A program made the translations under genes and the position numbers. A DNA stretch of 29,419 nt. Origin: a virus. Lineage: Duplodnaviria; Heunggongvirae; Uroviricota; Caudoviricetes. The stretch lies in the IMG/VR virus record IMGVR_UViG_3300042341_001208; one strand, written 5' to 3'. The notes under the pieces are model-generated. The model saw only the letters and a program-made list of their open reading frames with translations, did not search any database and was not told the DNA's origin. Shown here piece after piece: positions 9,180-26,279 of this stretch (positions are counted from its first letter, which is position 1; every line of letters starts with the position of its first letter).

Positions 9180-10034
9180 TACAGTAGATCACAAAATTTA
9201 AAAGTTACTAAAACAGAACTAGCCAAATTAGGTCTCACTTCTGTTCAAGCGACTATGATCGAGCCTAATACTCAAGGTCTCGGTTTATTGGGGATTGGGT
9301 ATTTAAAACCTCTTCCTGATGTTCCTACTGATTACCAAGCAGTAACCAATTCTAAAGGAAATCCCGTTTATTCGAAAACTACAGTTCAGACTTATTCCAT
9401 ATTTTTTGCTCAATATGAGAACACTTATATTCCGGAAGGAGATGAAAAATTATATTCCTTTGTTGCAGTAAGAACACTAAATCCTATTACCTCAAGTGAT
9501 TGTGCAAAACAACTTGGAATGAAACAATCTAATGTTTATGGGTTAACCCTTAGTGAATATGAGGCTGGAACTTTTCAACATCCAGTTTATCTCAATCAAA
9601 ATAAAGAACCATTAACTTTTAATTATACAGATATTCCTGTTATGCTTCAAACTGTTCCAGGAAGGCTTGATAATGTTCCTATTGGTGCACCTAATTTCCC
9701 ACTAACTCCTAACAGAATTGCTAGCCAGCTTGGAATGCTACCTCAACCACCATACCCAGATTTTGTTACCTCTTTTGGTCAAACTGGGGGAACTGCAATT
9801 TCTGCCGGAGGAACTGTTGGATTTAGAGATGCTTCTCTAATGGTTCCTACTACAGTTCAGCCTACCGCATGGAATTGGAACTTTGGACCATCTGCTTCCC
9901 CTACAGGAAGTACCGCACAAAATCCAAGTTCGGTAACTTATGGATCTACTGGAAGCTTTAGCGTAACTCTAACCGCTTATAATGCCTATGGATCCAAATC
10001 AATAACTAAACAAAACTTTGTAATCGTATCATAA
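9168..10034 (+). CDS. Putative virion protein with a C-terminal PKD domain (TTG start)
   Basis: VGFRDAS...PTAWNWNFG...STAQNPS.VTYGSTGSFSVTLTAYNAYG is a canonical PKD signature. It is the first gene of the tail block. Confidence 0.8.
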   Translation: MKPLYSRSQNLKVTKTELAKLGLTSVQATMIEPNTQGLGLLGIGYLKPLPDVPTDYQAVTNSKGNPVYSKTTVQTYSIFFAQYENTYIPEGDEKLYSFVAVRTLNPITSSDCAKQLGMKQSNVYGLTLSEYEAGTFQHPVYLNQNKEPLTFNYTDIPVMLQTVPGRLDNVPIGAPNFPLTPNRIASQLGMLPQPPYPDFVTSFGQTGGTAISAGGTVGFRDASLMVPTTVQPTAWNWNFGPSASPTGSTAQNPSSVTYGSTGSFSVTLTAYNAYGSKSITKQNFVIVS

Positions 10035-10035
10035 A

Positions 10036-11163: not shown

Positions 11164-11177
11164 AATAATTTTTAGAT

Positions 11178-11492
11178 GTGTCCGTAAATTCTCCAAATAA
11201 TCCGATTTTAGAACCAGGTCTTAGTGTTAGAATTATCGATGGTTCCACTAGTCAAACTTTTGATACCCTATATTTTGTAGGAACCTCGAATAACTATGTT
11301 AAAAAATCTGCTAAAAGCGAGACTATTAACTATTCAACATTTGGAAACTTCTGGACTAAGCAGATTTCAGTGGAGAGTAATTTTAGGGATATTCTAGACG
11401 GGGGAGATTCTGCACCAGGAACAGCACAGTTCTTCGGTCCAATCATAGGAGGGGAATTCCCAACACAAACAAGATTATTAAACAACATATAA
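11178..11492 (+). CDS. Hypothetical, probably virion-associated protein, 104 aa (GTG start)
   Basis: Beta-rich and Ser/Thr-rich, with a DILDGGDS motif of the kind seen in phage fibre-associated proteins. Sits between gp15 and the mini-fibre gene. Confidence 0.65.
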   Translation: MSVNSPNNPILEPGLSVRIIDGSTSQTFDTLYFVGTSNNYVKKSAKSETINYSTFGNFWTKQISVESNFRDILDGGDSAPGTAQFFGPIIGGEFPTQTRLLNNI

Positions 11493-11498
11493 AAGAAA

Positions 11499-11861
11499 AT
11501 GGCTTATAGAATACAATTTAGAAGAGATACATCTACAAACTGGGATAGTAACAATCCTATCCTTTTACAAGGAGAGTTTGGCTATGAACTTGATACCGGA
11601 TTTGCTAAAATTGGTGACGGATCCTCTACATGGGATCAATTAACTTATTTTGGAGGAACAGGTCCAACTGGACCAACTGGTTCAACTGGACCAACTGGTT
11701 CAACTGGTGTAACCGGATCAACTGGACCTTCTGTTTCTTCTCTAGCTCCTGGATCGTCGGGTGCTACCGGAACAACCGGAGAATTAGCTCTGGATACAAA
11801 CTATCTTTACGTTTGTGTTGGAACAAATACTTGGAAAAGAACCCAGATAACAGGCTGGTAA
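11499..11861 (+). CDS. Short tail-fibre-like protein: Mtd_N-type N-terminal domain, collagen-like G-X-T repeats, small C-terminal module
   Basis: [46 protein letters not shown] is the Mtd N-terminal domain pattern. It is followed by nine G-X-Y triplets and then [21 protein letters not shown]. Confidence 0.85.
11652..11732 (+). repeat. Coding tandem repeat: 9-bp G-X-T units, including two perfect copies of GGACCAACTGGTTCAACT (11670-11705)
   Basis: Encodes [27 protein letters not shown]. Confidence 0.9.
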
Positions 11862-11881
11862 TTTTTTAATAATGAATATTT

Positions 11882-11906
11882 AAAAGCCCTTTATTGGGGC
11901 TTTTTT
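11882..11906 (+). terminator. Intrinsic terminator ending the tail block
   Basis: Stem AAAAGCCC(T), loop TTATT, (G)GGGCTTTT followed by a T tract, about 20 nt after the stop at 11861. Confidence 0.85.
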
Positions 11907-11908
11907 GT

Positions 11909-11934
11909 GAAACAATTCTTAGCAGTAAACTATA
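11909..11934 (+). promoter_or_regulatory. Bipartite GAAACAAT-N10-AAACTATA motif (putative promoter of the glycan operon)
   Basis: Lies immediately after the terminator, 22 nt upstream of the ATG at 11957, and matches 3064-3088. Confidence 0.55.
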
Positions 11935-11956
11935 ATAGATAATAAATTATAGAATT

Positions 11957-12232
11957 ATGTCAGAACCAATAAAATTATCTCAAGAAGAATTAGATTCAAT
12001 TAAAGATCTAAGAGAAAAAATAAGATCTAACGTTGAAAAAATCGGAAGACTTAACATCAAAAGACACTTTACAGAGACCGAGTTGAATTTGATTAAAATG
12101 GATATAGATACGGAATATCTAGAAACAGAAGAATTGAGTAGACAGGAATCTAAAATTGTTGATTCTATCATAGCGAAATATGGTGATGGTGATTTAGACT
12201 TCACTACAGGTATCTACACTCCAAGATCTTAA
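11957..12232 (+). CDS. Small coiled-coil protein, 91 aa, first gene of the glycan operon
   Basis: Heptad-like charged helices ending in a KYGDGDLDFTTGIYTP beta-hairpin-like tail. Function unknown. Confidence 0.75.
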   Translation: MSEPIKLSQEELDSIKDLREKIRSNVEKIGRLNIKRHFTETELNLIKMDIDTEYLETEELSRQESKIVDSIIAKYGDGDLDFTTGIYTPRS

Positions 12233-12251
12233 TTTTTCTAACAACCAATTT

Positions 12252-14567
12252 GTGAGTAAAATAAAAATTTATGCACATGGGTCGTACATAGGAAATACCG
12301 GGTACAATCACCATACACGAGATTTTTTTAGATCTCTTTCTAAATATTTTCCGATCAAATTTAGAAATTTTACTGTAGGTGATTCTTGGAAAGGTCTAAG
12401 CGAAACCCCGCATGACGAAGAAGATTATCTAGATGACTTAGATAAAAATTTATTATACAGTCAAAGATTGTGGGTAGGGGAAGGTCGAATGGAGGATTTT
12501 AAAATATATCCTTCTTCAGAAAAAGAATTTGGAGCCGATCTTAATATAGTTCTAAATGAATCAAATCATTATTTATATTACGAAAAATATTCAGGACCCA
12601 AAATAGCATATAATGTTTGGGAATCAACCAGACAGACTGAAGAATTTTTTAAAAAATTAATATTATTTGATGAGATATGGGTTCCTAGTAAATGGCAAAG
12701 AGATTGTACTATAGATCAAGGAGCAAATCCAGACCAAGTTAAAGTTGTTCCTGAAGGAGTGGATGTTGATACTTTTTATCCAGAATCTGTTGATTTGCTT
12801 GACGAGTACAAGGATAAAAGATTTAAATTTCTTTTAATGGGAAGATGGGACTATAGAAAATCTACTAAAGAAATTATAGAAACTTTTCTAAAAACATTTT
12901 CACCGGAGGAACCCATAGATATTGTTGTCTCAATTGATAACATGTGGGGAGAAGAAATGGATGGATTTAAAACCACAGAGGAAAGACTAAAAAACTATGG
13001 ACTTTTGGATCCTAGAATTAAAATAATACACTTTCCAAAAAGAGAGGATTACATAAAATACCTTAAAACCGGACATGTCTTTCTTTCGTGTGCTAGATCT
13101 GAAGGATGGAATTTACCTTTGATTGAGGCCATGGCCTGTGGAACACCTTCTATCTATTCTGAGTGTTGCGCTCAGATGGAATTTGCAGAAGGTAAAGGAT
13201 TACCTGTTAAAATAATAGGGGAAAAGCCTGCAAATCAAAACACCTACGGCAGATACAGTATGGGTGATCTCCCAGGTAATTACTATGAACCGGATTTTAT
13301 TGATCTTTCTAGAGTTATGAGAGATGCCTATGAAAATTATGAATTTCACAAAAGTAAAGCTGTAGAAGAAAGTGTCGAGTTAAGAAGAAATTTTTCTTGG
13401 GAAGAGATTGCTAAAATAGGAAAATCAACAATAGAAGATTTTGTCGTAAAAGTAAATCAGCCCGGATACAATAAGAACAAAGACACTAATTCAATTCATA
13501 TTTCTTATTTAGATGGACCAAAGGTTGAGATTACTGGAGATTTTGAGTCTTCGTATCATATAGAGTTTATTGATTCTAAAACCGAGAAGATCATTCATTC
13601 GGAAACAATAACTAATAATATGTGGTGTGTTTGTTCAAGAAAATATTACACAGATTGGGTAATTAAGATCAACGGTAAAGTTGTTGACACTTTTGGACTT
13701 GAGGGTAAAAGAGTTTTAATTTCTTTTGAGTCTAAATCTATTGGGGATACAATTGCATGGGCTCCTTATGTAGTAGACTTCGAAAAAAAACACAAATGCA
13801 AGATTATATTATCTACATTTCATAATGACTGGTTTAAGGGGGTTAAAGAATACTCTAATTTTGAATTTATATCCCCCGGAAGTAACACAAATTGTTATGT
13901 TGTTTATAGAATTGGATGGTTTAGATCTAATGGAGGTAGATGGGACGATTTTAATTCATACCCAAATCCATTAAATTCACAGCCTCTCCAAAAGACATCT
14001 TCTGATATTTTGGGATTAGAATTTGAGGAAAGAAATTATGGAATTAATTTTACTCCGAGAAAAAATCCTATGACTGAAAAATATGTTGTAATTGCCCCGG
14101 AGTCTACCGCAGGATGTAAAGAATGGACTAGAGAAGGATGGGAAATTCTAACAAAGATGCTAACTGAAACTGGGATTCAGGTAATTTGTTTAACTCAAAA
14201 ACCATATTTTATTAAAGGAGCCCGTTGTATACATGGCAAAAATTTGGAAGAATCTATTAATATACTGTATCACTCCGAATATTTGATCGGACTGAGTTCA
14301 GGTCTTTCCTGGATTAATTGGTCGCTAAAAAAACACACAGTTATGATTAGTGGATTTACTGCTAAGGATCACGAATTTAAAACTAATATAACTAGAATAC
14401 AAAATTCAAATGCTTGTAATTCTTGTTGGGAAAATACAAATTTTATTTTTGATACTGGAGACTGGGATTGGTGTCCAGTCTGGAAGGGAACAGATAAACA
14501 ACACATTTGCTCAAAATCTATATCACCAATAACAGTATTTAATTTATTACCAGAGATAAAAAAATGA
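12252..14567 (+). CDS. Fusion of a GT4 glycosyltransferase and an autotransporter heptosyltransferase (TibC/AAH, BAHT-like) domain (GTG start)
   Basis: N-terminal half has GT4 motifs (GRWDYRK, SEGWNLPLIEAMACGTP). C-terminal half has SIGDTIAWAPY (D499), KEW, IGLSSGLSWINW and the iron finger C722-x2-C725-x15-C741-x11-C753. Confidence 0.85.
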   Translation: MSKIKIYAHGSYIGNTGYNHHTRDFFRSLSKYFPIKFRNFTVGDSWKGLSETPHDEEDYLDDLDKNLLYSQRLWVGEGRMEDFKIYPSSEKEFGADLNIVLNESNHYLYYEKYSGPKIAYNVWESTRQTEEFFKKLILFDEIWVPSKWQRDCTIDQGANPDQVKVVPEGVDVDTFYPESVDLLDEYKDKRFKFLLMGRWDYRKSTKEIIETFLKTFSPEEPIDIVVSIDNMWGEEMDGFKTTEERLKNYGLLDPRIKIIHFPKREDYIKYLKTGHVFLSCARSEGWNLPLIEAMACGTPSIYSECCAQMEFAEGKGLPVKIIGEKPANQNTYGRYSMGDLPGNYYEPDFIDLSRVMRDAYENYEFHKSKAVEESVELRRNFSWEEIAKIGKSTIEDFVVKVNQPGYNKNKDTNSIHISYLDGPKVEITGDFESSYHIEFIDSKTEKIIHSETITNNMWCVCSRKYYTDWVIKINGKVVDTFGLEGKRVLISFESKSIGDTIAWAPYVVDFEKKHKCKIILSTFHNDWFKGVKEYSNFEFISPGSNTNCYVVYRIGWFRSNGGRWDDFNSYPNPLNSQPLQKTSSDILGLEFEERNYGINFTPRKNPMTEKYVVIAPESTAGCKEWTREGWEILTKMLTETGIQVICLTQKPYFIKGARCIHGKNLEESINILYHSEYLIGLSSGLSWINWSLKKHTVMISGFTAKDHEFKTNITRIQNSNACNSCWENTNFIFDTGDWDWCPVWKGTDKQHICSKSISPITVFNLLPEIKK

Positions 14568-15286
14568 TAGACATTAGTAATTTTGATTGGGGTTGGATGG
14601 ACGAGCCTTGTGAAACTTATCAAATCATGTCAGATGGGACACACAAACCAATGGGACTTTATCATAAGGATTCCATCATTAAAGAAATTTTTGAGGGGGA
14701 AAGCATATATGAATTATTTTTTGAAGTGGAGGAAAATGATATTGTTCTTGATGTAGGAGCTAGCCTAGGTCCTTTCACCAGGTCTATTTTACACAAAAAT
14801 CCAAAGCATGTATTCTGTTTTGAACCAAGCTACAGAGAATTTAAAGTGTTAGTTAAAAATACCATGGGATATCAGGTAACTCCTATCTTTAAAGGAATTT
14901 CTGATAAGAATGGGATATCGGAATCTGATATGCTCTTTGGTGGAGAATCCGAAATGGAATCTATTACATTTAAATCTTTTATTGACTTATTTGGAATTGA
15001 TAAAATAGATTTCCTTAAAACCGACTGCGAAGGAGGGGAATATGATATTTTCACTAGTGGAAATCTTCCATATATAAAAGAGAACGTAAAAAAAATAGTT
15101 GGAGAATGGCATCTTAGTACAGATGAACTTAAGACTAAATTTAGAAATTTTAGAGATCATATATTACCAAACTTCAATAAAGTTATAATTTTTTCTGTAG
15201 ACGGGATTGACATTACCTGGGATTTGTGGAATGAACACTTCATTGAATATTATACCGAAATTATAATTCACATTGACAATAGATAA
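14564..15286 (+). CDS. FkbM-family SAM-dependent methyltransferase
   Basis: Contains VLDVGASLGPF, CFEP, IDKIDFLKTDCEGGEYDIF, IVGEWH. Confidence 0.9.
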   Translation: MIDISNFDWGWMDEPCETYQIMSDGTHKPMGLYHKDSIIKEIFEGESIYELFFEVEENDIVLDVGASLGPFTRSILHKNPKHVFCFEPSYREFKVLVKNTMGYQVTPIFKGISDKNGISESDMLFGGESEMESITFKSFIDLFGIDKIDFLKTDCEGGEYDIFTSGNLPYIKENVKKIVGEWHLSTDELKTKFRNFRDHILPNFNKVIIFSVDGIDITWDLWNEHFIEYYTEIIIHIDNR

Positions 15287-15288
15287 AA

Positions 15289-15933
15289 ATGGCACAAGGA
15301 GTACATAAAATTACGGAGGATTTTGAAAAATCACTATGCGATTATACCGGATCGCCTTATGCAGTTGCATTAGATAATATGAGCAATGCTTTATTTTTAG
15401 CCCTTTACTACGAAAAAAATATAAAGAAAAGTATTAAGGCTGGAACTGTCGATTGCCCTGCTAGAACTTATCCTTCCGTTCCGTGTGAAATAATTCACGC
15501 AGGTCTGAAGGTTAATTTTACCCCAGTGGAAGGGGATACCATAAAAGGAGCTTATCAGCTTTTTCCAAGCAACGTCTGGGATTCCGCTTTAAGATTTAGC
15601 GCTGATATGTATATCCCAAAAACCCATATGTGCTTATCCTTTACTGGACCATATAAAACACTGAAGCTGAGCAAGGGAGGAGCAATATTAACCGATGACT
15701 ATCAAGCAATGTTATGGTTCAAAAGAGCTAGATTTAGTGGGAGAAGAGAATGCTCATATCACGATGATAACTTTGATATGCTAGGATGGAATTTTTACAT
15801 GATGCCGGAACTCTCAGCAAGAGGACTTTTGATGATGACTCAGTTTTATAACATGGACGGGTCAAAAAAATACAACGAAGATCTAGAACTACCATATCCT
15901 GATTTATCAAAATTTGAAATTTATAAACAATGA
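15289..15933 (+). CDS. Short DegT/DnrJ/EryC1/StrS-family PLP-dependent sugar aminotransferase (214 aa)
   Basis: Contains FEKSLCDYTG, AVALDNMSNAL, WDSA, SFTGPYK (PLP lysine), GGAILTDD, GWNFYM. The usual C-terminal small domain is missing. Confidence 0.8.
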   Translation: MAQGVHKITEDFEKSLCDYTGSPYAVALDNMSNALFLALYYEKNIKKSIKAGTVDCPARTYPSVPCEIIHAGLKVNFTPVEGDTIKGAYQLFPSNVWDSALRFSADMYIPKTHMCLSFTGPYKTLKLSKGGAILTDDYQAMLWFKRARFSGRRECSYHDDNFDMLGWNFYMMPELSARGLLMMTQFYNMDGSKKYNEDLELPYPDLSKFEIYKQ

Positions 15934-16508
15934 AAAAAGCATTAGTCGGATATGGTGGACATGCCAAAGAAGTGATGGCACAAATGGGGTTAAATATTAC
16001 TTGTTTTGTAGACGACAAATATTTGATCACCGGAACAAAACCATTATCTGAATTTGATCCGAAAGAATACTCTTTGATGGTTGCAGTTGCAGACCCGATA
16101 GACAGACATAATATTATACAGAAACTTCCAAAAGAAACTAAATATTTTACCTGGATACATCCAACTGCTTTACTGATGGGGAAAATAGAAATCGGAGAAG
16201 GTAGCTTTATCGGTGCTTATTCTATTCTAACTACAAATATTAAAGTTGGAAGTCATTCAATCTTAAATAGGGGTAACCACATTGGCCACGACTGTATTAT
16301 AGGAAATTATTTCAGTGCAATGCCCGGATCTATAGTTTCAGGAAACGTTCATATAGGAAATATGGTTTATTTAGGAACAAATTCCTCCATAATAGAAAAA
16401 AAATACTTAGCACACAATATCAAAATAGGTGCAAATAGTGTAGTTATAAGAGATATAAAAGAACCTGGTATTTATGCTGGATCTCCTGCTAGAAAAATTT
16501 TAAAATGA
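15930..16508 (+). CDS. NeuD/PglD-family sugar acetyltransferase (left-handed beta-helix)
   Basis: N-terminal VGYGGHAKEV, IHPTA, hexapeptide repeats, GNHIGHDC, GIYAGSPARKI. Confidence 0.9.
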   Translation: MKKALVGYGGHAKEVMAQMGLNITCFVDDKYLITGTKPLSEFDPKEYSLMVAVADPIDRHNIIQKLPKETKYFTWIHPTALLMGKIEIGEGSFIGAYSILTTNIKVGSHSILNRGNHIGHDCIIGNYFSAMPGSIVSGNVHIGNMVYLGTNSSIIEKKYLAHNIKIGANSVVIRDIKEPGIYAGSPARKILK

Positions 16509-17494
16509 AAGATCTAATATTAATAACCTCATATTGTCCCGATGACCATAGAGAAAATATACTGAGAAATTTAGTTTATTCTTTAGAAAAATACAAAAGT
16601 AATTTTGAGGTTATGGTCGTAAGTCATACCCCAATTTCTTTAGACATTCAAAAAAAAGTTGAATTCTGCTTTTATGATAAAAAGAATGAAATCCTGACCG
16701 ATTGGGATCTCCTAAATCAACCTTGGTTTATCCCTAGCGGGGGAAGAAGAATTCAATCTTCTTTCCTTAGCAAAAAAAATACACATTTAGCAATCTGGAG
16801 GCTAATGATACTGGGATTTTCAAATGCCAAAAATTTAGGATTCTCAAAAGTCCATCATATAGAATATGATTGTGAGATAAATGAAATTAGTGAATTTCTA
16901 GAAAATAGCAGATTGTTAAATGAGAATAATAGTGTTGTCTATATGGATATTCAAGAAAGAATATCCCCTGTAATGTTTGGAAGTTTTCAATCTTACTTTA
17001 TTCCAAAAATCCACGAATTACTTGTTAATCTTAATGAAGAAAAAATTAAAGATTTAATAAGACATGCTATCTCTAAGTCTCCAGAGGGTCTTTTAAAACA
17101 ACTAATAGATGAAAGTGGTAATGTTGTTGTCAAGAACAGAGACGTTTTGAAAAAAAAAGGAAATAGATTTGGAATAATTAATAGCCAATCGATTAATAAA
17201 AATCCTTGGTCAGTTCCTTATTATGACTACTTAACAGAAACAGTCGATTTTATTTCCTGGAACACATCAAACAAAGAAGGCATAGAATATAAGATAATAA
17301 TAAATAATACCAATTTAGTTTACATCCCTAAAGTTTATATTGATTGCTGGACAATTAGGTCTCTGGGAAAAATAGAAGAAATTAATTCTATTATAGTTCT
17401 AGAAAATGAAATAATTAGAGATACTTTTTACCTGAATTCAGAATCAGACAGGGAATTATTTAAAAAAATGAGCTATAGAGTAGTAGAAGATTAA
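16505..17494 (+). CDS. Uncharacterised putative GT-A-like glycosyltransferase (paralogue of 20127-21107)
   Basis: N-terminal beta strand LILITSYC, then VMVVSHTPI, CFYDKKNEIL and an HIEYDCEI DxD-like motif. The operon context fits. Confidence 0.55.
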   Translation: MKDLILITSYCPDDHRENILRNLVYSLEKYKSNFEVMVVSHTPISLDIQKKVEFCFYDKKNEILTDWDLLNQPWFIPSGGRRIQSSFLSKKNTHLAIWRLMILGFSNAKNLGFSKVHHIEYDCEINEISEFLENSRLLNENNSVVYMDIQERISPVMFGSFQSYFIPKIHELLVNLNEEKIKDLIRHAISKSPEGLLKQLIDESGNVVVKNRDVLKKKGNRFGIINSQSINKNPWSVPYYDYLTETVDFISWNTSNKEGIEYKIIINNTNLVYIPKVYIDCWTIRSLGKIEEINSIIVLENEIIRDTFYLNSESDRELFKKMSYRVVED

Positions 17495-17496
17495 TA

Positions 17497-18048
17497 ATGA
17501 TTGAAAATATACATTTATGGCATGCTGACAGAGGAACTTATTTTGATCGAAATGTGAATATAATTTCGTGGAGTGACCAATATCAAATCAGATTAGGCCG
17601 ATATAATTCAATTGGTAGAGATTGTAACTTTTTCCTGCATGCAAACCATAGACCAGATTGGGTAACGACATCTTCCCAATTGTTAGGACCTGTTACGGAC
17701 GAAATTGCTCAAATGCACATGCAAATGGGACATCCCTCATGTAAGGGTGATATTATAATTCAAAATGATGTTTGGATCGGAGCAAAGTCTACTATAATGT
17801 CCGGGGTTAAAATATCTAACGGATCTATCGTTGGAGCTGGATCCGTGGTAACTAAGGATGTTCCCCCGTATGCAATTGTTGCCGGCAATCCGGCTAAGAT
17901 AGTTAAATCCAGGTTTACTGAGGAACAAATTGAAAAGTTATTAACTATTGCTTGGTGGAACTGGGACGAACAAAAAATTAGAGATAACTCGATGACTATG
18001 TGGTCAGATAATATAGATGAATTTATAAATAAATTTTATGAAAATTAA
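17497..18048 (+). CDS. CatB/Vat-like (XAT) hexapeptide O-acetyltransferase, probably acting on a sugar
   Basis: Contains LGRYNSIG, H....VTT, KGDIIIQNDVWIG, VGAGSVVTKDVPPYAIVAGNPAKIVKSRF, LLTIAWWNW. Confidence 0.85.
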   Translation: MIENIHLWHADRGTYFDRNVNIISWSDQYQIRLGRYNSIGRDCNFFLHANHRPDWVTTSSQLLGPVTDEIAQMHMQMGHPSCKGDIIIQNDVWIGAKSTIMSGVKISNGSIVGAGSVVTKDVPPYAIVAGNPAKIVKSRFTEEQIEKLLTIAWWNWDEQKIRDNSMTMWSDNIDEFINKFYEN

Positions 18049-19558
18049 TAAAGCAATTTTTGGTGTTGATGATTCTTACTTTTTAGAATTTTGGCCTATA
18101 CAAGCTAGGATTTGTAAAGAGTTATTAAACATAGAACCTGTTCTATTTTATATTTGTGATGAGGATAGCGACTTCTATAATGATGGGAACGGTTTAGTTA
18201 AGAAAATTAAAAAAGTAAAAAACACTCAAAATGGTAATGTAATAAATTCTGGATTACTTGCTTGTATTGTACGAATGTATGGCACGAAATATTTTCCAGA
18301 TGAGGTGTGTCTTACTTGCGATTTAGATATGCTAATGATTAATAAAGATTATTTCGTTAATCAAATTGAAAAATATGATAATGATAGTTTAGTTATTTAT
18401 TCAAGTGATGCGTATGATTTAAATAGACCAGAAGCGATTGAGCTGTTTAAAAATCAACCATTTCCTTTTACCCAAGAAATGTATAACTATCCATATAATG
18501 CGGCTAAAGGTAGAGTATTTGACAAAATTTTAGACACTAATTGTACTTTTGAAGAGTTTACTAATCGTCACGGAAATTATAAACCAGGATATCATTTTAT
18601 GTGGATGATTGATGAGTTTTATTTTGCGGATTGTGTAAATAATAAAAATCACGGTATTGAAGTTCATAAACTTAAAAGAGGATACATTTCTCCTTGGATT
18701 GCTGATAGAAGAATTGATAGAGGAAATTTCCCTGTTAAATTAGAGTGGGATGGTGAAATTGAATTCCAAAAAAAATATGGTATTTACGATGAAAAAAAAC
18801 TTAGAGATGGTTATTATATTGACGTAAATTGTTGTAGACCTTATAGCAAATATAAACAAGCGATAGATGATTTAATAGATATTGTATTGTGTGATAAAAA
18901 TAATATACAGAATAATATAATGTATGATTTAGGGATAAAACACCAAACGGATAAAATAGTACATCATAGATATGATAGGATTTATCCTTTATTTTTAGAT
19001 CGATTAAAAAACTCACCGATAAAACTTTTTGAAGTTGGATGTGGTTCTGATTATGCATCATTTAACATGTGGAAAGAATATTTTCCAAGCGGGATGATAT
19101 TTTCTATGGACATTAATGAAGAAATTGAAACAGATAGAGGCATAGTTTATAAAGGGGACCAAACCAAAGAAGAAGATCTAAATAGAATGGTCGAAATAAT
19201 TGGTAAGTGTGATATAATAATTGATGACGGAAGTCATGTACCGCAACACCAAATAGAAACATTTAATTATCTTTTTGAAAACATGCTAGAAAATGGTGGG
19301 ATTTATATTATTGAGGATATTGAGTGTAATTATTGGAATCCAAGAAATATGATTTACGATTACCAAATAGGTGACTATAATATTGTGGACTATTTTCAGT
19401 CTTTACCGCACAAAATAAACTCGGAATTTAGTAATATGAAAAATCATAAATCAATCTCGTCACTAACTTTTTTCAAAAATTGTATAATTTTAACTAAAAT
19501 GACATCTGATGAAATTGAAGAAAATAAACAAGAATATAGATTTAAAAATATGTTATGA
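18038..19558 (+). CDS. Fusion of a DxD-containing GT-like domain and a MycE/TylE-like sugar O-methyltransferase
   Basis: N-terminal half has CLTCDLDML. C-terminal half has TDK..HHRY...Y, FEVGCG, SMDI, GDQ, IIIDDGSH, GGIYIIEDI. Confidence 0.75.
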   Translation: MKINKAIFGVDDSYFLEFWPIQARICKELLNIEPVLFYICDEDSDFYNDGNGLVKKIKKVKNTQNGNVINSGLLACIVRMYGTKYFPDEVCLTCDLDMLMINKDYFVNQIEKYDNDSLVIYSSDAYDLNRPEAIELFKNQPFPFTQEMYNYPYNAAKGRVFDKILDTNCTFEEFTNRHGNYKPGYHFMWMIDEFYFADCVNNKNHGIEVHKLKRGYISPWIADRRIDRGNFPVKLEWDGEIEFQKKYGIYDEKKLRDGYYIDVNCCRPYSKYKQAIDDLIDIVLCDKNNIQNNIMYDLGIKHQTDKIVHHRYDRIYPLFLDRLKNSPIKLFEVGCGSDYASFNMWKEYFPSGMIFSMDINEEIETDRGIVYKGDQTKEEDLNRMVEIIGKCDIIIDDGSHVPQHQIETFNYLFENMLENGGIYIIEDIECNYWNPRNMIYDYQIGDYNIVDYFQSLPHKINSEFSNMKNHKSISSLTFFKNCIILTKMTSDEIEENKQEYRFKNML

Positions 19559-20130
19559 AAAATAAAGAAGAAAAAATTGAAGAATTACTACTTACACCAA
19601 GAATGTTTTATAGTGATTTTAAACCTAGATATAATCAATTGAAAGGTTTAAAAATGCTGATAGATAAATTTATTGATGATAATATGACCATGGTTGAAAT
19701 AGGTTCTTTTGCTGGGGTTAGTAGTGAATTATTCTCACTACACTGTAAAAAAATATATTGTGTTGACTTATGGGACCCATATTGGGAAATAACAGATAAA
19801 CAAAAAGTAGAATTTGCGGAGTATTCTTTTGATAAGATGTCTAAAAATTATAACAATATAGTAAAAATTAAAAATAGTAGTGTCGAAGCGGCAAAACAAT
19901 TTGATGATAACTCTTTAGATTTTGTTTATATTGATGCGGCACATGACTATGAAAGTGTAAGGCAGGATATTTTAACTTGGTTACCAAAGGTTAAAAAGGG
20001 AGGATATATCGGAGGACATGATTTTAGATTTGATGAAAACATCGGTGTATATGAAGCTGTTAATGATATTTTTTGTTACGATTATATGATAACATCATTC
20101 CCTGATTCAAGTTTTGTTGTAGAAGTATGA
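19555..20130 (+). CDS. Class I SAM-dependent methyltransferase (Methyltransf_24-like)
   Basis: Contains VEIGSFAGVS, CVDLW, LDFVYIDAAHDYESVRQDI..WLPKVKKGGYIGGHDF. Confidence 0.9.
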   Translation: MKNKEEKIEELLLTPRMFYSDFKPRYNQLKGLKMLIDKFIDDNMTMVEIGSFAGVSSELFSLHCKKIYCVDLWDPYWEITDKQKVEFAEYSFDKMSKNYNNIVKIKNSSVEAAKQFDDNSLDFVYIDAAHDYESVRQDILTWLPKVKKGGYIGGHDFRFDENIGVYEAVNDIFCYDYMITSFPDSSFVVEV

Positions 20131-21107
20131 GAAAAATAGTTTTAATAAGTTCATATTGCGATACTCAGGAAAAAATTGATATTTTATACGACAATATAAA
20201 AATATTAAAGGGGTTAGATTTAGATACGTTAGTAATAAGTCCAATCACATTACCTGAAGACATAATAGAACTATCTGATTTTGTTTTTTTTACAAAAGAA
20301 AATCCTTTGCTAAATTGGCCGGTTCGTGGATTTACTTTTTGGGAAACAAATTTTTCTAAAGATGGTTGGATGACCATGCACAGAAATGTTGCGGAATATG
20401 GATGGGCTGGTTTATACCAAATAAAAAAAATGAGTCAAATTGCATTAAGTTATGATTACGATTATTTTTATCACATAATATATGATTTGGAAATTGATGA
20501 ATACGTTATTGATACTATAAATTCTAATATAACTAACTTAGTACATCCAAGAATTAATCCTAATAATAATGATGATTGGTGGGATTGTACTCTGCATTTT
20601 ATGATATTTGATAGGGAAATAATGGGTAAAATTGTTGATGTAATAAATCTTGATGATTATTTGAAGCTGGATGGTGTTGCCGAAGGACAAGCGTTATTAT
20701 GGACTAAATTATTCCCAATCCAAATTTCAAAAACACCAGTAAGAGATAAAATTTATTATTGGGGTGACAGGGGATTTTTTGATTACTCAATGAACCCAAA
20801 ATATAAATTATTTATTAGTAAAAATACACCAACAACCTGTTGGATTTCTGAAGACGATGTTAATATTGAAAAACCAATATCCTCTAACCTTAGATTTTAT
20901 ATTTATGACATCAAAGAACCTCAAAAATTAACATTCAATTTAGATGAAGTTCTTTATGAGAGAGAATTAAGTGAAAATGAAATTTTTGAGTTTGAAGTAG
21001 ATTCAAATACAATAAAAAATATAAAATTAATTGACACTTATGGTGAGTATGATTACTCTACTATCTATAAAGAAATTGATAGAAATTTAATTTACTTAGG
21101 ACATTAG
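20127..21107 (+). CDS. Uncharacterised putative GT-A-like glycosyltransferase (paralogue of 16505-17494)
   Basis: Contains IVLISSYC, TLVISPITL, VFFTKENPLL and HIIYDLEI, colinear with the 16505 protein and of similar length (326 vs 329 aa). Confidence 0.55.
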   Translation: MRKIVLISSYCDTQEKIDILYDNIKILKGLDLDTLVISPITLPEDIIELSDFVFFTKENPLLNWPVRGFTFWETNFSKDGWMTMHRNVAEYGWAGLYQIKKMSQIALSYDYDYFYHIIYDLEIDEYVIDTINSNITNLVHPRINPNNNDDWWDCTLHFMIFDREIMGKIVDVINLDDYLKLDGVAEGQALLWTKLFPIQISKTPVRDKIYYWGDRGFFDYSMNPKYKLFISKNTPTTCWISEDDVNIEKPISSNLRFYIYDIKEPQKLTFNLDEVLYERELSENEIFEFEVDSNTIKNIKLIDTYGEYDYSTIYKEIDRNLIYLGH

Positions 21108-21135: not shown

Positions 21136-21525
21136 ATGATATACAATCCAAAAATTTACATAGATAAAAGTCCGATCCATGGTTGGGGGGTTTTTGCCAA
21201 AGAGCATATAAAGGAAGGAGAAATATTCGAGGTTTGTCCTGTTATCACACTCCCCATCAATAAAGGAGAATCCAGTTCTCTTTTAATAGACTATAGATTC
21301 AACTGGCCACAGGGAAATGAATGGGAAGAACAAGTTTTCTCTTTCGGTTTTGGTGGGTTGTATAACCATAGAAATGATGCAAATTCTTATTGGAGATCCA
21401 ATATTGAAAACAAAACTTTTGAATTTATTGCACACAGGGACATTTTTCCAGGGGAGGAAATTTTCATCTGGTATGGAGACATAGGGTATTGGAACGACGG
21501 GAGAACTCACACGGAAGTGATATAG
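21136..21525 (+). CDS. Minimal SET-domain protein-lysine methyltransferase (vSET-like)
   Basis: Contains KSPIHGWGVFA, GEIFEVCP, GFGGLYNH, GEEIFIWYG..YW. No pre-SET or post-SET cysteine domains. Confidence 0.92.
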   Translation: MIYNPKIYIDKSPIHGWGVFAKEHIKEGEIFEVCPVITLPINKGESSSLLIDYRFNWPQGNEWEEQVFSFGFGGLYNHRNDANSYWRSNIENKTFEFIAHRDIFPGEEIFIWYGDIGYWNDGRTHTEVI

Positions 21526-21547
21526 TTTTTTAATATATAAATAGGAT

Positions 21548-21555
21548 CGTATATT
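21548..21555 (+). promoter_or_regulatory. CGTATATT motif upstream of the T9SS cargo gene (a TATAAATA also occurs at 21536-21543)
   Basis: Lies 16 nt upstream of the ATG at 21572 and is shared with the other two secreted-protein genes. Confidence 0.45.
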
Positions 21556-21571: not shown

Positions 21572-24500
21572 ATGAAAAACTTATTTAAACTTCTGCTTCT
21601 TTCTTTGCTCTTGTTCTTACCTGCAAAAGCTAGTGCTACCCATATGATGGGTGGAGACATTTCCTATGAATGTATTTCACCAGGTAAGTATAAATTATTC
21701 ATAAAAATCTATAGGGATTGTAGAGGTATTTCATTTAACAACCCAACAATTAGTGCTTATTGTGTTGATGGAAATGGTGGTATTACTAATAATACTCCTA
21801 TAACATATACAAGAACAGCTATCAATGACATTACACCAAATTGTTCTTCAGGTACTGCGCCATGTAATCCTGAAAACACTACAGTAACTTCTGAAGGTAT
21901 TGAAGAACATGTTTTTGAAGCTATCATGGATTTTAATACAGATCCTTTTAAAGCTTTAAAGGATGCAGGTTGTTGTGAAATTAGAATTAAAGTAGAACAG
22001 TGTTGTAGAAACGATGCTATAAATACTATCAATCCCGGAAATTTCTTTACTGATGCAATGATTAACATCTGTAACATTGCTAAAACTAAAAAAAAATGTA
22101 ACACTTCTCCTCAATTATCTATACCTCCTGTTGCTTATATTTGTTGTAACCAACCATTTAGATATAATAATGGTGTTCGTGAAGTTACTGATGGTGATAG
22201 TTTATCTTATGAACTTTCAACTCCATTAAGCGCTCATAACACTAATGAAAACTATGCTGGTGGGTTTAATTCTCAAATTCCAATGACTCCTTATTGTCCT
22301 CCAAATCCAGGAATTATTAATTGCAGACCATTACCTAATGCTAATCCACCAAGAGGTATTTATTTTGATAAAGAAACAGGTGATATTGTTTTTACACCTA
22401 CAAAATGTGATGAAGTAGGAGTTATAGTAATTCAAATTAATGAATGGAGAAAGGATTCTACAACTAATAAATGGATACTAATCGGTTTTACAAGACGGGA
22501 TATGCAACTTATTGTTAAACAATGTCCTGATAACAACCCACCTTCATTTCCTGACTCTAAAAACAAATACTCTGTATGTGAAGGAGAAAAAATATGTTTT
22601 AGAATTAAAACAAAAGATGATCCGTTTTTACCTAATCAAACAAGAGCAGACACTACTACTTTAACTTGGAACAACGGTATTCCAGGTGCTACTTTTAATA
22701 TAGTAAATTTAAATGTTAGGGAAAGAGAAGCAGAATTTTGTTGGACTACTAAAATTGGAGATGCTAGACCTAATCCTTATTCATTTACAGTTACAGTCAA
22801 AGATGATAATTGTCCCAAACCAGCATCAGCTAATAGAGGTTATAATATTACTGTTGCACCTAGAGCTGTAGATACCCGTAAGTATACCGTTTTAGATTGT
22901 GGTAAATTAAAGTTTACAGCCACTCCTAAAGATACAGTTAACTACAATCCTAAAAACTATAGATACAAATATGTAATTAGAGATTCAACAAACAGCGGTG
23001 TTCCGTTTTTTATGACTTTTAACAGAACTGATAGTTTTAAATTTAAACGTGGTGGAAAATATATCATTGAACACGAAATCAATAATCCTCCGTTCAATTG
23101 CCCAACCATTTATTCAGATACTATTATTATACCACCTGTATTAGATGTTGAGTTATCCTTTGGTAAAGACACATTTATATGTGCAGGTAATTCATTAACA
23201 GTAGAACCAATTGTAGCTTATGGTTTTGCTCCTTATAAATTTAGATGGGAAGTGCCTGTTGGAACTCATAATCCTGCAGATACTTTAAATAAAATTACCA
23301 TTACACCAACTCAGACGACTCGGATTGCACTTAGACTTACCGATAAAAATAAATGTGTAGACTCTGATACCATTTTGATTAAATACATTAAAAATCCTAT
23401 CGTTGACCTTGGTCCTGACCGAAGAATATGTACTTATGATTTTGCTACATTAGATGCTCAAAATGCAGATACTCTAATGTATGAATGGAGTTCGAATGGA
23501 GTTACGATTATTGGATCAAGTACCCTTGTAGTAAATTTATACGAAAAAATATTCCCTTCTCAAAAGTATTCAGTTAAGGTATTAGATAGTGTTTACAAAT
23601 GTTTTGATACTGATACAATAGAGGTATTTGTCAATGACACAGTTATAGCTCTTTCTGGAGGGGATAGAGAAATTTGTATTTTTGATACCTTAAAAGTTAC
23701 ATCTAAACGTAAGCCATTGGGATACACTCGTCAAATTACTTGGAGAGATATTATTTCTGGTACAACTATGGCAACTGATAGCGCTTTCAGTTTAAGAATA
23801 TCCACACTTGCGACTCGTAAATATGAAATGCTTTTAAGAGTTAATCAAAAAGGAGTTATCTGTGAAGACTTAGACACATTTACTTTAACTGTTAATCCAT
23901 TACCTGCCTTTACTCCAACAATACTACCACCTAGATGTTATCAAGATGGTGCTATTAATTTAAATTTAGCTAACTTTGCTACTGCAAATAATAAAACAAT
24001 TCCTGCTGACTCGATTAGATTCTTTCAAACTAAAACACCAAGTTGGATTACAGGTGGTCCTGTAGGTAGAAATACTTTTGTTTGGAATTTTCCAATTTAC
24101 ATTACTAACGCTCAAGTACCTAAAGCAGGTTTAACTGATGTAATTAGTTATGATTATAGAGATAAAAAAGGATGTTATAATAGAGGTAGTCATTCAATTA
24201 GATTAAATCCTAATCCTGTAGTTAAATTAAGAGAAAGATCATTTTGTCAAAAACCCTATCTCCCAACAAATGGGTCTGGTAATACATCAGGGTCTCAATA
24301 TGGAGAAAGTTTAGTAGATCTTAGCGTTTTAATAGTGTCTCCGTTCTCTAGAATTGGTGGTATAGAAACATTTAGATGTTTATCTGTTCCTGATGGTTCA
24401 GGTGTTAATCCCGATCTTATTATATTTTGGGATAATTCAATCCCTGCAAAGCCATTATTTGATCCCGGATCTCCTGAAGAACCTCAAAAAACAGGTAAAT

Positions 24501-26245
24501 ACGAAATAGAGTATTGTTTCCAAGATGCAGTTTCAGGTTGTAAATCATGTGATTCAGTAATAATTGACGTTATTAAATTACCTGAAATACAATTTGAATT
24601 TATACCTAGTCAATGTATTAACTTTCCTGAGTTAGATTTAAATAACTATGCTAAAGATAGAAACACAGATAAGTTTTTAGTAGATGGAATTTGGTCTACT
24701 GTTGAGTTTAGAAATTCAAGAGATAAATCAAATCCTACTATATCAAATGCTTTAAACAACTCAATAAAATTAAACAAATTCAACCCATCAGTTGCTGGAG
24801 CAGGACAGTATTTAATAAAATTATTTGATAATTCAAGTGGTTGTTTAGTTGAGGATAGTATAGAGGTAGTAGTTAATGGTTTACCTATTGTTAAAATAGA
24901 TTTGCCTGACACTATTTGTTCAAGTTTATCTACATTAGAATTAACAAGTATACAACCCGGAGGAAATGTAGGTAAATGGTCAGGTGAAGGAGTTGTTGGA
25001 AATGAATTTGATCCAAGTATTTCTCCTAAATCAAAACAATATGAAGGAAAATATAGAGTTAAATTTGAATATACAAACCCAATAACCAAATGTACAGATA
25101 CTACAGCAGATCTTATATTAATACAAACTCAACCACAGATTGATATACTAAATTCTAATCCATACCAACAATGTGAAGATAAACAATTTATATTAAATGG
25201 TGATAAAAAATGGGTTAAAGATATTATTTGGAAAACTAATGGTGATGGATCATTTGTAAGACAAGGTAATGATTTGATTCAACTATATAATTATGGAATC
25301 GGTGATACATCATTAGATGTTAGAAATGGTAGAGTTTTAATTACTTTGGAAAGTGTTGAAGAAGGTGTTTGTCCTTCAGCTAAAGATGATATTCAATTAA
25401 TTATAGAACCGTTACCACAATTTAATTTTATTGGTAATCCATTAATTCAGTGTGAACCAGGTAGAGTTGATTTTACTTCAATAGTTAGAAAACCATTAAG
25501 TAATATAAAATATGAATGGGAGTTTGGTAATAACGGTATATCAACCATAGCTAATCCAATTAATATTAAATATGATACTGCTAATAGAAATTGGTATGAT
25601 GTAACTTTAATAGTAACAAATGATTGGGGTGGAGGTGTTTGTCAGAGTGTATTAACAAAAGAAGATTATATAAAAATACTACCTGTACCTGATGCTCAGT
25701 TTATTAATGAACCTAATTTTACAACAGTAGCATTTCCTAAATTTAAATTTATCAATCAAACTCAGATTCGATGGGGATTAGATAGTGTTAAATACTTATG
25801 GTCTTTTGACTTTCCTGATACTGAAGACACTTCAACTCAAATCAATCCAATTAAAAATTATCTAGCAGACACTTCAGGATATTGGGTAAACTTAACTTCA
25901 AGTTTTACATATGAAGATGTTACTTGTTTAGATTCAACCTCAAATATACTAACTATAGGTCCTGATGTTATTGTTTTTGCTCCAACAGCGTTTAGTCCTG
26001 AAAGAACAGGACCTGATAGAAATAATAAATTCTACATTACAGTTAGCGGAGAAAAAACATTCGAAGCTATGTTGTTTAATAGATGGGGAGAAATTCTATG
26101 GAAAACTAAAGATAAAAATGAAGGTTGGGACGGTACCTACAAAAGAGAAGACTCACAACAAGACGTTTATGTTTGGAGAGTAAAGGTTTCTGCTTATGAT
26201 GGTAAAGTATATTATTACGAAGGAACGGTAACCCTACTAAGATAA
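21572..26245 (+). CDS. Large secreted Bacteroidota-type surface protein: SPI signal peptide, Cys-rich N-terminal domain, Ig-like/PKD repeats, gliding-motility-associated type-B T9SS C-terminal domain (CHU_C)
   Basis: Begins MKNLFKLLLLSLLLFLPAKASA|THMMGGDISYEC...YRDC. PKD segments include KYEWEFG..NP...Y and YLWSF..NP..Y. Ends VFAPTAFSP..PDRNNKF...LFNRWGE.LW....GWDGTY...DVYVW....EGTVTLLR. Confidence 0.92.
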   Translation: MKNLFKLLLLSLLLFLPAKASATHMMGGDISYECISPGKYKLFIKIYRDCRGISFNNPTISAYCVDGNGGITNNTPITYTRTAINDITPNCSSGTAPCNPENTTVTSEGIEEHVFEAIMDFNTDPFKALKDAGCCEIRIKVEQCCRNDAINTINPGNFFTDAMINICNIAKTKKKCNTSPQLSIPPVAYICCNQPFRYNNGVREVTDGDSLSYELSTPLSAHNTNENYAGGFNSQIPMTPYCPPNPGIINCRPLPNANPPRGIYFDKETGDIVFTPTKCDEVGVIVIQINEWRKDSTTNKWILIGFTRRDMQLIVKQCPDNNPPSFPDSKNKYSVCEGEKICFRIKTKDDPFLPNQTRADTTTLTWNNGIPGATFNIVNLNVREREAEFCWTTKIGDARPNPYSFTVTVKDDNCPKPASANRGYNITVAPRAVDTRKYTVLDCGKLKFTATPKDTVNYNPKNYRYKYVIRDSTNSGVPFFMTFNRTDSFKFKRGGKYIIEHEINNPPFNCPTIYSDTIIIPPVLDVELSFGKDTFICAGNSLTVEPIVAYGFAPYKFRWEVPVGTHNPADTLNKITITPTQTTRIALRLTDKNKCVDSDTILIKYIKNPIVDLGPDRRICTYDFATLDAQNADTLMYEWSSNGVTIIGSSTLVVNLYEKIFPSQKYSVKVLDSVYKCFDTDTIEVFVNDTVIALSGGDREICIFDTLKVTSKRKPLGYTRQITWRDIISGTTMATDSAFSLRISTLATRKYEMLLRVNQKGVICEDLDTFTLTVNPLPAFTPTILPPRCYQDGAINLNLANFATANNKTIPADSIRFFQTKTPSWITGGPVGRNTFVWNFPIYITNAQVPKAGLTDVISYDYRDKKGCYNRGSHSIRLNPNPVVKLRERSFCQKPYLPTNGSGNTSGSQYGESLVDLSVLIVSPFSRIGGIETFRCLSVPDGSGVNPDLIIFWDNSIPAKPLFDPGSPEEPQKTGKYEIEYCFQDAVSGCKSCDSVIIDVIKLPEIQFEFIPSQCINFPELDLNNYAKDRNTDKFLVDGIWSTVEFRNSRDKSNPTISNALNNSIKLNKFNPSVAGAGQYLIKLFDNSSGCLVEDSIEVVVNGLPIVKIDLPDTICSSLSTLELTSIQPGGNVGKWSGEGVVGNEFDPSISPKSKQYEGKYRVKFEYTNPITKCTDTTADLILIQTQPQIDILNSNPYQQCEDKQFILNGDKKWVKDIIWKTNGDGSFVRQGNDLIQLYNYGIGDTSLDVRNGRVLITLESVEEGVCPSAKDDIQLIIEPLPQFNFIGNPLIQCEPGRVDFTSIVRKPLSNIKYEWEFGNNGISTIANPINIKYDTANRNWYDVTLIVTNDWGGGVCQSVLTKEDYIKILPVPDAQFINEPNFTTVAFPKFKFINQTQIRWGLDSVKYLWSFDFPDTEDTSTQINPIKNYLADTSGYWVNLTSSFTYEDVTCLDSTSNILTIGPDVIVFAPTAFSPERTGPDRNNKFYITVSGEKTFEAMLFNRWGEILWKTKDKNEGWDGTYKREDSQQDVYVWRVKVSAYDGKVYYYEGTVTLLR

Positions 26246-26256: not shown

Positions 26257-26279
26257 GATATATAAGAGGGGAAACCCTC
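26257..26279 (+). promoter_or_regulatory. GATATATAA motif (putative late promoter) immediately followed by a GAGGG-GAAA-CCCTC GNRA hairpin
   Basis: Motif at 26257-26265 and hairpin at 26266-26279, in the 52-nt gap before the neck gene. Confidence 0.55.

Follow-up and report, generated by a model that had tools for sequence, protein, structure and literature searches.

The window, a 29,419-nt stretch of the IMG/VR virus record IMGVR_UViG_3300042341_001208, contains a gene whose predicted product joins a secretion signal to a chain of Ig-like domains and a C-terminal type IX secretion system (T9SS) sorting domain. The record holding this fibre gene is 89,451 bp long, linear and ~35% complete (CheckV), and the label 'jumbo' given to the phage in an earlier note is not demonstrable from it. 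The features at the locus are as follows:

21136..21525, + strand: upstream neighbour, a SET-domain protein of 129 aa (PF00856, E = 5.6e-16)
21548..21555, + strand: promoter-like motif CGTATATT, 16 nt 5′ of the ATG, noted for its position and recurrence
21572..26245, + strand: intact coding sequence of a predicted T9SS type-B cargo, a probably host-derived tandem Ig-like fibre of 1557 aa
21572..21637, + strand: Sec signal peptide, aa 1-22, read from the sequence, with predicted cleavage after A-S-A
21638..23371, + strand: conserved N-terminal region, aa 23-600, Cys-rich tandem beta-sandwich domains, presumably the distal end of the fibre
23372..25981, + strand: more divergent Ig-like stalk, aa 601-1470, including PKD_4
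25448..25648, + strand: PKD_4 within the stalk, aa 1293-1359 (Pfam match)
25982..26242, + strand: type-B T9SS C-terminal domain (CHU_C), aa 1471-1557
26266..26279, + strand: short GC-rich hairpin without a T-run, in the 52-nt spacer 3′ of the stop codon
26298..28853, + strand: downstream neighbour, a neck or head-closure-like protein of 851 aa (PHROG 679)

The intact reading frame of ~4.7 kb described in the earlier note is present, and the main features attributed to its product hold up. The N-terminus (MKNLFKLLLLSLLLFLPAKASA, followed by TH after the predicted cleavage) has a charged n-region, a hydrophobic core, an A-S-A cleavage motif and no lipobox Cys, from which we assigned an SPI signal peptide by eye. 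This type of signal is retained in 10/10 phage copies examined, in each of which a signal peptide of divergent sequence directly abuts a conserved mature start, (A/S/T)HMMG(G/A)D. The expected abundance of Cys and of tandem Ig/PKD-like repeats is borne out by 45 Cys, by one PKD domain (PKD_4, 27.8 bits against a Pfam cut-off of 27) and by AlphaFold2 models of aa 22-440 (pLDDT 87.7) and aa 1283-1557 (pLDDT 89.0). Both models are chains of beta-sandwich Ig-like domains, the first matching Ig and cadherin chains, and the modelled fold of the C-terminal domain is a beta-sandwich. The best structural matches to the C-terminal model come from the GhpA grappling-hook protein of Aureispira (PDB 9flu, 9flw, 9g8b), a Bacteroidota surface fibre that is likewise an Ig-like chain; the TM-score of only ~0.4 reflects a generic tandem-Ig resemblance and implies no homology or hook function.

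The C-terminal domain had been called a complete type-B domain ending in TVTLLR. The end is confirmed (...EGTVTLLR), and CHU_C (PF13585) passes its Pfam cut-off at aa 1471-1542 (32.6 bits against 27; 38 bits in a six-frame search), but TIGR04131, which covers profile positions 4-84 of 85 and reaches the last residue, scores 28.5 bits, below its own cut-off of 35. Chromosomal orthologues likewise reach only 38-39 bits on CHU_C, so the weak score is a trait of the family rather than a sign of decay in the phage. The type-A domain (Por_Secre_tail, PF18962 / TIGR04183) has no match anywhere in the 89-kb record.

The flanking genes are, as previously described, phage SET and neck genes: the upstream protein is assigned by PF00856, and the 851-aa downstream protein is neck-like, matching PHROG 679 ('head closure Hc2', E = 1.2e-8) and scoring 24.6 bits on T4_neck-protein, just below the cut-off of 25. 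Elsewhere around the fibre gene lie genes for UvsX, a DnaB-like helicase, gp46/47-like nuclease subunits, the large terminase, the tail sheath and the tail tube. Five contigs, each assembled independently and drawn from various runs and sources, have the SET–gene–neck arrangement at 100% identity, which rules out an assembly chimera, and the 3′ junction is confirmed by a sixth contig at 99.99% identity. The fibre gene belongs to a bona fide phage genome, large and T4-like. We take the phage to be one that infects uncultured Bacteroidia, and the bacterial genomes compared here serve as stand-ins for its host.

The 8-mer CGTATATT upstream of the gene occurs 10 times in the 89-kb record, in every case on the coding strand, and 9/10 copies sit 8-46 nt 5′ of a start codon; within the window, 3 copies are observed against 0.85 expected. 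We read it as promoter-like from the position of the motif alone. The other genes that it precedes are NAMPT-like, PurA-like and dCMP-deaminase genes and two genes for small secreted proteins, with no virion genes among them.

The genomic neighbourhood leaves some room for a virion component, that is, an Ig-like decoration or fibre such as T4 Hoc, assembled in the cytoplasm: the gene lies directly 5′ of neck-like, terminase, sheath and tube genes. Ig-like domains are also frequent on virions, and the RB49 Hoc structure is found among the fold matches (rank 21). Several lines of evidence nevertheless make a virion role highly improbable. First, the promoter-like motif is common to metabolic genes. 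Second, 10/10 phage copies examined retain both a cleavable signal peptide and, with its ...G-T-x-T-L-x-R end, the T9SS C-terminal domain. Third, the Cys point to a protein that folds outside the cytoplasm: 44/45 are kept across the three phage copies of the window's clade and three chromosomal copies. Fourth, the neighbours of the gene in other phage lineages are RNA-ligase and DNA-ligase genes and small ORFs rather than virion genes. Finally, no PHROG family matches the fibre protein. With its secretion signals conserved and no PHROG structural family assigned, we do not class the protein with Hoc-like virion decorations.

The fibre gene has 567 homologues, and the best-scoring among those listed are nearly all full-length (~1500-1560 aa). 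This ~1500-aa family is present in 30/31 related Bacteroidia genomes searched, many of which carry more than one copy; housekeeping genes lie in the surroundings of chromosomal copies, the best of which are 69-70% identical to the phage gene. Compared with the chromosomal orthologue of one genome (G004), identity is 79-88% per successive 100-residue interval over aa 101-600 and 44-76% per successive ~100-residue interval over the stalk (aa 601-1470), where it is lowest at aa 1193-1382 (44-46%, with pN/pS of 0.54-0.56). The C-terminal domain is 92-96% identical among the three phage copies of the window's clade and 67% identical to the G004 orthologue. Conservation between phage and host copies is highest over the N-terminal ~600 aa. 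These comparisons argue that the phage gene is a host-derived copy of a conserved Bacteroidia cell-surface protein, a disulfide-rich Ig-like chain of ~1500 aa.

Such a gene might be a neutral passenger, recently captured from a host and without a role for the phage; host-derived genes are common in large phages, and function is unproven. We find this very hard to credit. Relatives are present in other phage contigs, including records 93% and 98% complete with terminase homologues. Among the three phage copies of the window's clade, dN/dS is ~0.15 at dS 0.4-0.8 (0.03-0.045 among three chromosomal copies). The frame is intact in every phage copy seen and full length is kept across phage lineages. 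In one lineage the gene occupies a conserved locus though its alleles are only ~60% identical, and the fibre gene has its own phage promoter-like motif. These patterns indicate that the gene is maintained by selection in phages.

In a tree whose labels were given after it was viewed, and in which seven 'bacterial' rows were labelled from contig size alone (217 kb to 1 Mb), the phage copies fall in three places: a topology that gathers them all into a single clade is rejected (AU p = 2e-44, lnL difference 852), and one that unites just the two nearer phage clades is likewise disfavoured (p = 0.006). Alleles from one conserved phage locus are placed on both sides of a chromosomal clade. This topology indicates that host–phage transfer occurred more than once.

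The earlier note stressed that the cargo comes without a cognate PorP/SprF partner gene. Neither PorP/SprF nor other T9SS genes were found in the 89-kb record, which at ~35% completeness does not show that the phage as a whole lacks PorP/SprF. It is also missing from two related phage records, 93% and 98% complete, in which family members occur. The observation stands for the record but marks nothing special, as no PorP/SprF gene lies beside the chromosomal orthologues examined either, and a missing partner is ordinary for such cargo. The same holds for the Flavobacterium johnsoniae 'orphan' type-B substrates, which have one shuttle in common (Fjoh_1123, Fjoh_1720 as well as Fjoh_4934, shuttle Fjoh_1677; Paillat et al. 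2025, PMC12618676). They share with the phage fibre a type-B C-terminal domain and the lack of a neighbouring porP/sprF gene, which suggests dependence on a shuttle encoded elsewhere; unlike them, the cargo gene here is phage-borne and the shuttle would be host-encoded, a predicted pairing. Secretion requires five conserved motifs, A-E, of the type-B C-terminal domain (PMC12618676). Type-B cargo binds PorP-like proteins (PMC9143113), and two related bacterial genomes, stand-ins from the clade with the nearest orthologues, each have 2 PorP/SprF genes against 26 and 31 CHU_C proteins, along with SprA, porP-gldK-like-gldL-gldM-gldN and a PorU-like gene.

Having only 2 PorP/SprF genes in each of these genomes would suit a plug: made in excess, type-B cargo would saturate either the translocon or the small number of host shuttles, halting host secretion and gliding. 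When type-B C-terminal-domain fusions are made at high levels in F. johnsoniae, they stay unsecreted unless more shuttle is provided (PMC12618676). However, a signal peptide and C-terminal domain would suffice for this purpose, yet the N-terminal ~600 aa, unneeded in a plug, are the best conserved part and together with the Cys pattern the most constrained, and full length is retained in every phage lineage. The earlier suggestion that the phage jams the T9SS fits poorly with this pattern, and we give it very little weight.

We consider it probable that the gene is an intact, selected phage copy of a host fibre, shown on the infected cell via the host T9SS and supplying the activity of the host fibre. 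Since a conserved host fibre has been copied intact, export signals included, the phage-made fibre is probably displayed by infected cells; predicted export by the host T9SS is the well-supported part of this reading. Combining preserved sequence features with published knowledge of the T9SS, we infer the following steps. Transcription during infection would proceed from the gene's own phage promoter-like motif, and the product would be transported over the inner membrane by Sec, with disulfides then forming in the periplasm. The host T9SS would recognise the C-terminal domain, and a common host PorP/SprF-type shuttle would export the fibre and retain it on the surface, as with 'orphan' type-B substrates. 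The infected cell would then bear a fibre made by the phage and closely copying the host fibre over its distal N-terminal ~600 residues. As to its biological role, we infer from the conservation pattern only that the likeliest purpose would be to supply or boost the binding activity of the host fibre (e.g. adhesion, aggregation) during infection, with the phage copy outside the ECF-sigma control that applies to its chromosomal counterpart.

The same export could instead be defensive, with displayed or shed fibre mimicking the receptor, or serving as decoy or mask, so that superinfection is blocked and progeny do not re-adsorb to lysing cells. Phage resistance in Flavobacterium is associated with losing gliding or T9SS functions, and phage T5 Llp acts comparably to such a fibre. 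The occurrence of one family in several large-phage lineages, with repeated transfer, fits a protein central to adsorption, and phage copies show faster evolution of the stalk. To evade the fibres of the phage itself, however, a mask should differ at the N-terminus, and the distal N-terminal ~600 aa, the likeliest adsorption epitope, are the most host-like part, so we regard a defensive role as unlikely.

T5 Llp and lambda Lom and Bor are phage proteins sent into the host envelope via host export, as we propose for the fibre. To our knowledge, these are small lipoproteins or outer-membrane proteins, none of which uses the T9SS or reproduces a host fibre at near full length. Among T9SS cargo, SprB is much larger than the phage fibre (~1.5 kaa). 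By Pfam the fibre protein contains no SprB repeats (PF13573), and sprF is not adjacent in phage or chromosomal contexts, so we do not assign it to the SprB-type gliding adhesins. In the SprB-SprF pair of F. johnsoniae and the PG1035-PorP pair of Porphyromonas gingivalis, a PorP-like protein of the outer membrane keeps type-B cargo at the cell surface (Gorasia et al. 2022, PMC9143113).

The general idea of phage T9SS cargo is already in the literature, known from sequence only. The earlier note knew of no characterised case, which is true for experiments, but such cargo has been reported bioinformatically as 'Cryophage' genes (Bellas et al. 2020, Nat Commun, PMC7468147) and, in crAss-like contigs, as proteins with a T9SS sorting domain (de Jonge et al. 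2019, PMC6949934). As here, that cargo is phage-encoded, carries a Bacteroidota T9SS sorting domain and is presumed to rely on the host system. The Cryophage genes, which are hypervariable, encode enzymes and a PA14 protein with type-A domains (PorV/PorU route). The fibre gene has a type-B domain (PorP/SprF route), copies a single conserved host family at full length, is under purifying selection and is present in several phage lineages.

More speculatively, the ~1500-aa type-B fibre family could be a point on which interaction between this Bacteroidia clade and large phages centres, several phage lineages having acquired it from their hosts or exchanged it with them. The phage copy may then reprogramme the infected-cell surface through the host's shared PorP/SprF shuttle, for example for sticking to uninfected hosts or excluding rival phages; we hold this broader picture to be possible but doubtful. 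If the phage fibre is displayed, the T9SS would be a phage route for redecorating Bacteroidota cells, and in natural communities this could influence how cells aggregate, glide and attach to particles, as well as their cross-resistance to phages. That a single conserved host family has been transferred repeatedly singles out a concrete protein to test, and its nearest chromosomal orthologues offer a way to approach the host clade of a large, uncultured phage. The question of how orphan type-B substrates use a shared shuttle (PMC12618676) would thereby widen to cargo from outside the cell's own genome.

The earlier note had described an intact 4.7-kb reading frame, and the sequence bears this out:

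Window 21572-26245, + strand: intact open reading frame of 1557 aa, the gene under study

Judged by eye, the N-terminus of the encoded protein (MKNLFKLLLLSLLLFLPAKASA|TH) is a classical Sec signal peptide with cleavage at A-S-A. At the other end, the type-B domain that the note had proposed to check with two profiles is recovered above threshold by only one of them: CHU_C (PF13585, Pfam) matches the extreme C-terminus with 32.6 bits against a cut-off of 27, whereas TIGR04131 (NCBIfam) aligns end to end with 28.5 bits, under its cut-off of 35. In six-frame searches chromosomal orthologues share this modest CHU_C score (38-39 bits), and the weak score is therefore a family trait. PKD_4 (Pfam) is also present, narrowly over its cut-off (27.8 versus 27 bits). 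AlphaFold2 models of residues 22-440 (pLDDT 87.7, pTM 0.86) and 1283-1557 (pLDDT 89.0) both form chains of beta-sandwich domains, with fold matches to titin, cadherin and contactin chains and to fragments of the Aureispira GhpA fibre. We found no catalytic domain in the 1557-aa protein, no PHROGs family for it and no match to it in a PDB sequence search. In a six-way alignment, the window allele carries private insertions of 4 + 6 aa (residues ~646-662) and of 17 aa (residues ~895-915), the latter rich in Gly, Ser, Thr and Asn; both insertions are missing from the other phage and chromosomal copies.

The junctions of the gene with its neighbours were checked using independent contigs in place of reads. 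An exact-match look-up with the SET protein encoded upstream returned five contigs (three from Logan runs, one from an ENA assembly and one from a JGI assembly). All five contain SET followed by the start or the whole of the 1557-aa gene, as well as the downstream neck-like gene where length allows, and are 100% identical to the window across 6.2-12.6 kb. Samples containing the phage are SRR27419722, SRR27419058, SRR27335588, ERZ27272072 and JGI 3300042446. The gene is thus a phage gene and not the product of a chimeric assembly, the outcome that the earlier note had named as fatal to its reading. A further IMG/VR contig, L005, is 99.99% identical across the 3′ junction and reaches past the end of the 89-kb record. 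This contig breaks inside the gene (aa 1087, window ~24828, C1:15001), perhaps because different alleles present together interrupted the assembly.

The IMG/VR record itself encodes replication proteins (a UvsX-like recombinase, a DnaB-like helicase and gp46/47-like nuclease subunits), packaging and tail proteins (large terminase, tail sheath and two tail-tube proteins), a sugar-modification cluster, the SET-domain protein, the gene under study and the neck-like protein. Because it is a linear record of 89,451 bp and ~35% complete (CheckV), the designation 'jumbo' phage is plausible but not settled by it. The record gives a single CHU_C match and none for Por_Secre_tail, and no ORF in it exceeds 1557 aa. 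Immediately before the SET gene lies the following block:

Window 11957-21107, + strand: sugar-modifying genes, on the same strand as and directly upstream of the SET and cargo genes

Among its products are a 771-aa glycosyltransferase, methyltransferases, a DegT-like fragment and two PglD-like hexapeptide acetyltransferases, which may act on the exported fibre, on the cell surface or on the virion. Among GenBank phages, megablast of the region found nothing, and the only tblastn hits were in two uncultured phages of ~640 kb and a 4-kb fragment, with matches limited to the C-terminal third or less of the 1557-aa protein. The two large phages (LR745206.1 and LR756502.1) match the C-terminal domain in 4 and 3 places, respectively.

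The protein has 567 homologues, the best-scoring of which, as listed, are nearly all full-length (~1500-1560 aa). Among genomes related to one carrier, 30 of 31 carry the family, many in more than one copy. The nearest chromosomal copies are 69-70% identical over their full length, and chromosomal neighbourhoods hold housekeeping genes such as gyrB, citrate synthase and ribosomal proteins. The nearest orthologues lie in a conserved array:

L001 (contig) 6542-18293: conserved chromosomal array
L016 (contig) 6681-18477: conserved chromosomal array

Its order is ECF sigma factor, a 461-aa protein without a Pfam family, a 510-aa type-A cargo, the orthologue, a ~1200-aa type-B paralogue and citrate synthase, an arrangement suggesting that a group of surface proteins is expressed in response to a signal.

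Copies in phage context occupy three places on the family tree, whose groups were named only after the tree was seen and in which seven rows were called bacterial from contig size alone. For the window clade (79-90% identity), the sister group is the chromosomal clade of G004, a related bacterial genome. A second phage clade takes in a 149-kb record (93% complete) together with two phage-like contigs (105 kb and 128 kb), and a distant one (33-35% identity) includes records of up to 295 kb (98% complete). A constraint uniting all phage copies was rejected (lnL difference of 852, AU p = 2e-44), and one joining the first two phage clades was disfavoured (p = 0.006). The 295-kb record (98% complete; region G034 C1:204634-208842, L020) also encodes a second CHU_C protein of ~630 aa, 4 kb from its 1519-aa family member.

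In one phage lineage of low GC content (~27% in L006), the gene occupies a fixed locus:

L028 (contig) 424-13035: fixed locus
L006 (contig) 1759-11744: fixed locus
P0002 contig: fixed locus

Here the order is Clp protease, Metallophos, RNA ligase, DNA ligase, the gene, a 93-aa ORF and a 55-aa ORF. Alleles at this locus come from both of the first two phage clades, which a chromosomal clade separates, suggesting repeated allele exchange with hosts. The allele of the window phage (34.5% GC) shares 88% DNA identity with one allele of this lineage while the flanks are unrelated; the proteins on either side of that copy in L006 are without homologues in the 89-kb record. Together, alleles of mixed clades at one locus and a closely similar allele between unrelated flanks indicate that the gene has probably been exchanged repeatedly, both between phages and hosts and among phages.

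We then considered what is kept in these copies. dN/dS is 0.15 among three window-clade phage copies (at dS of 0.4-0.8) and 0.03-0.045 among three chromosomal copies, and 44 of 45 Cys are conserved across all six. Each of ten phage copies examined has a signal peptide, divergent in sequence and directly preceding a conserved mature start, (A/S/T)HMMG(G/A)D; the end ...G-T-x-T-L-x-R is likewise kept in 10/10. Compared with the G004 orthologue, the phage copy shows identities of 79-88% at residues 101-600, 44-63% at residues 801-1382 and 67% in the C-terminal domain, which is 92-96% identical among phage copies. Three things are thus preserved in phages: the signals for export, the extracytoplasmic disulfide pattern and the N-terminal region, the last of which would be distal if the C-terminal domain anchors the protein. 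Preservation of all three argues against a virion protein assembled in the cytoplasm and against a neutral passenger. It also argues against a mere plug of the T9SS, since the disulfide pattern and N-terminal region are preserved besides the export signals.

Upstream of the gene we observed an 8-mer, CGTATATT, present in 10 copies in the 89-kb record, all on the coding strand:

Window 549-556, 1025-1032 and 21548-21555, coding strand: copies of CGTATATT, with seven elsewhere in the 89-kb record
Window 575-1015 and 1056-1583, + strand: two small proteins, 146 and 175 aa, with signal-peptide-like N-termini

In nine of the 10 copies a start codon follows after 8-46 nt, the motif usually taking the form (G/A)ACCGTATATT; one of these copies is 16 nt before the start of the gene under study. 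The remaining copies precede NAMPT-like, PurA-like and dCMP-deaminase genes and, one ahead of each, the genes for the two small proteins; no virion genes are among those behind the 10 copies in this record. Neither of these small proteins has a PHROG family, and both may likewise be exported. In related phage contigs (L006, L015, L019, L020 and L028), genes are preceded by a comparable motif, TCGTAYATTMAC. From the placement of the motif, we infer a phage promoter dedicated to the gene, of a class that serves metabolic or auxiliary genes rather than structural ones. A second candidate, TATAAATA at 21536-21543, matches the T4 late-promoter consensus; with 10 copies in the record versus ~23 expected, it is rarer than chance and mostly within genes, and was rejected as a promoter class. 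A generic sigma-70 scan gave no excess of sites over shuffled sequence.

The earlier note had emphasized a missing PorP/SprF partner. Such a gene is indeed absent from the 89-kb fragment (~35% complete), and from two related phage records of 93% and 98% completeness, but this absence is not special, as the chromosomal orthologues have no adjacent PorP/SprF gene either. In the two genomes with the nearest orthologues, 26 and 31 CHU_C proteins are accompanied by just 2 PorP/SprF genes per genome (C1:264002-264931 and C1:387013-387885 in G004). Of the two, one is part of a porP-gldK-like-gldL-gldM-gldN operon at 17 kb from the orthologue, and the other adjoins a PorU-like gene; SprA is also present. 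Surface retention of type-B cargo by PorP-like proteins has been published (PMC9143113), and in F. johnsoniae one shuttle is common to three orphan type-B substrates (PMC12618676); ipTM values for cognate pairs in the latter study exceeded 0.8. Given orthologues with no adjacent shuttle, few shuttles overall and these published orphans, the phage protein would be an orphan type-B substrate of the ordinary kind, dependent on a shuttle from the host.

T9SS cargo in phages is known from sequence: 'Cryophage' genes carry type-A domains (PMC7468147), and crAss-like contigs encode proteins with a sorting domain (PMC6949934); we found no experimental test of phage-encoded T9SS cargo in the literature. 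In contrast to the 'Cryophage' genes, the gene described here takes the type-B route. This route is new for phage T9SS cargo. So are the repeated occurrence of a single conserved host family across several lineages of large phages and the evidence drawn from selection and from a promoter-like motif. Export of the phage protein through the host T9SS is well supported by the sequence evidence, and we consider the full statement, including the proposed purpose of a phage-made fibre, somewhat probable. As for that biological role, we infer that the protein functionally mimics the host fibre, a reading we prefer to exclusion or a decoy.
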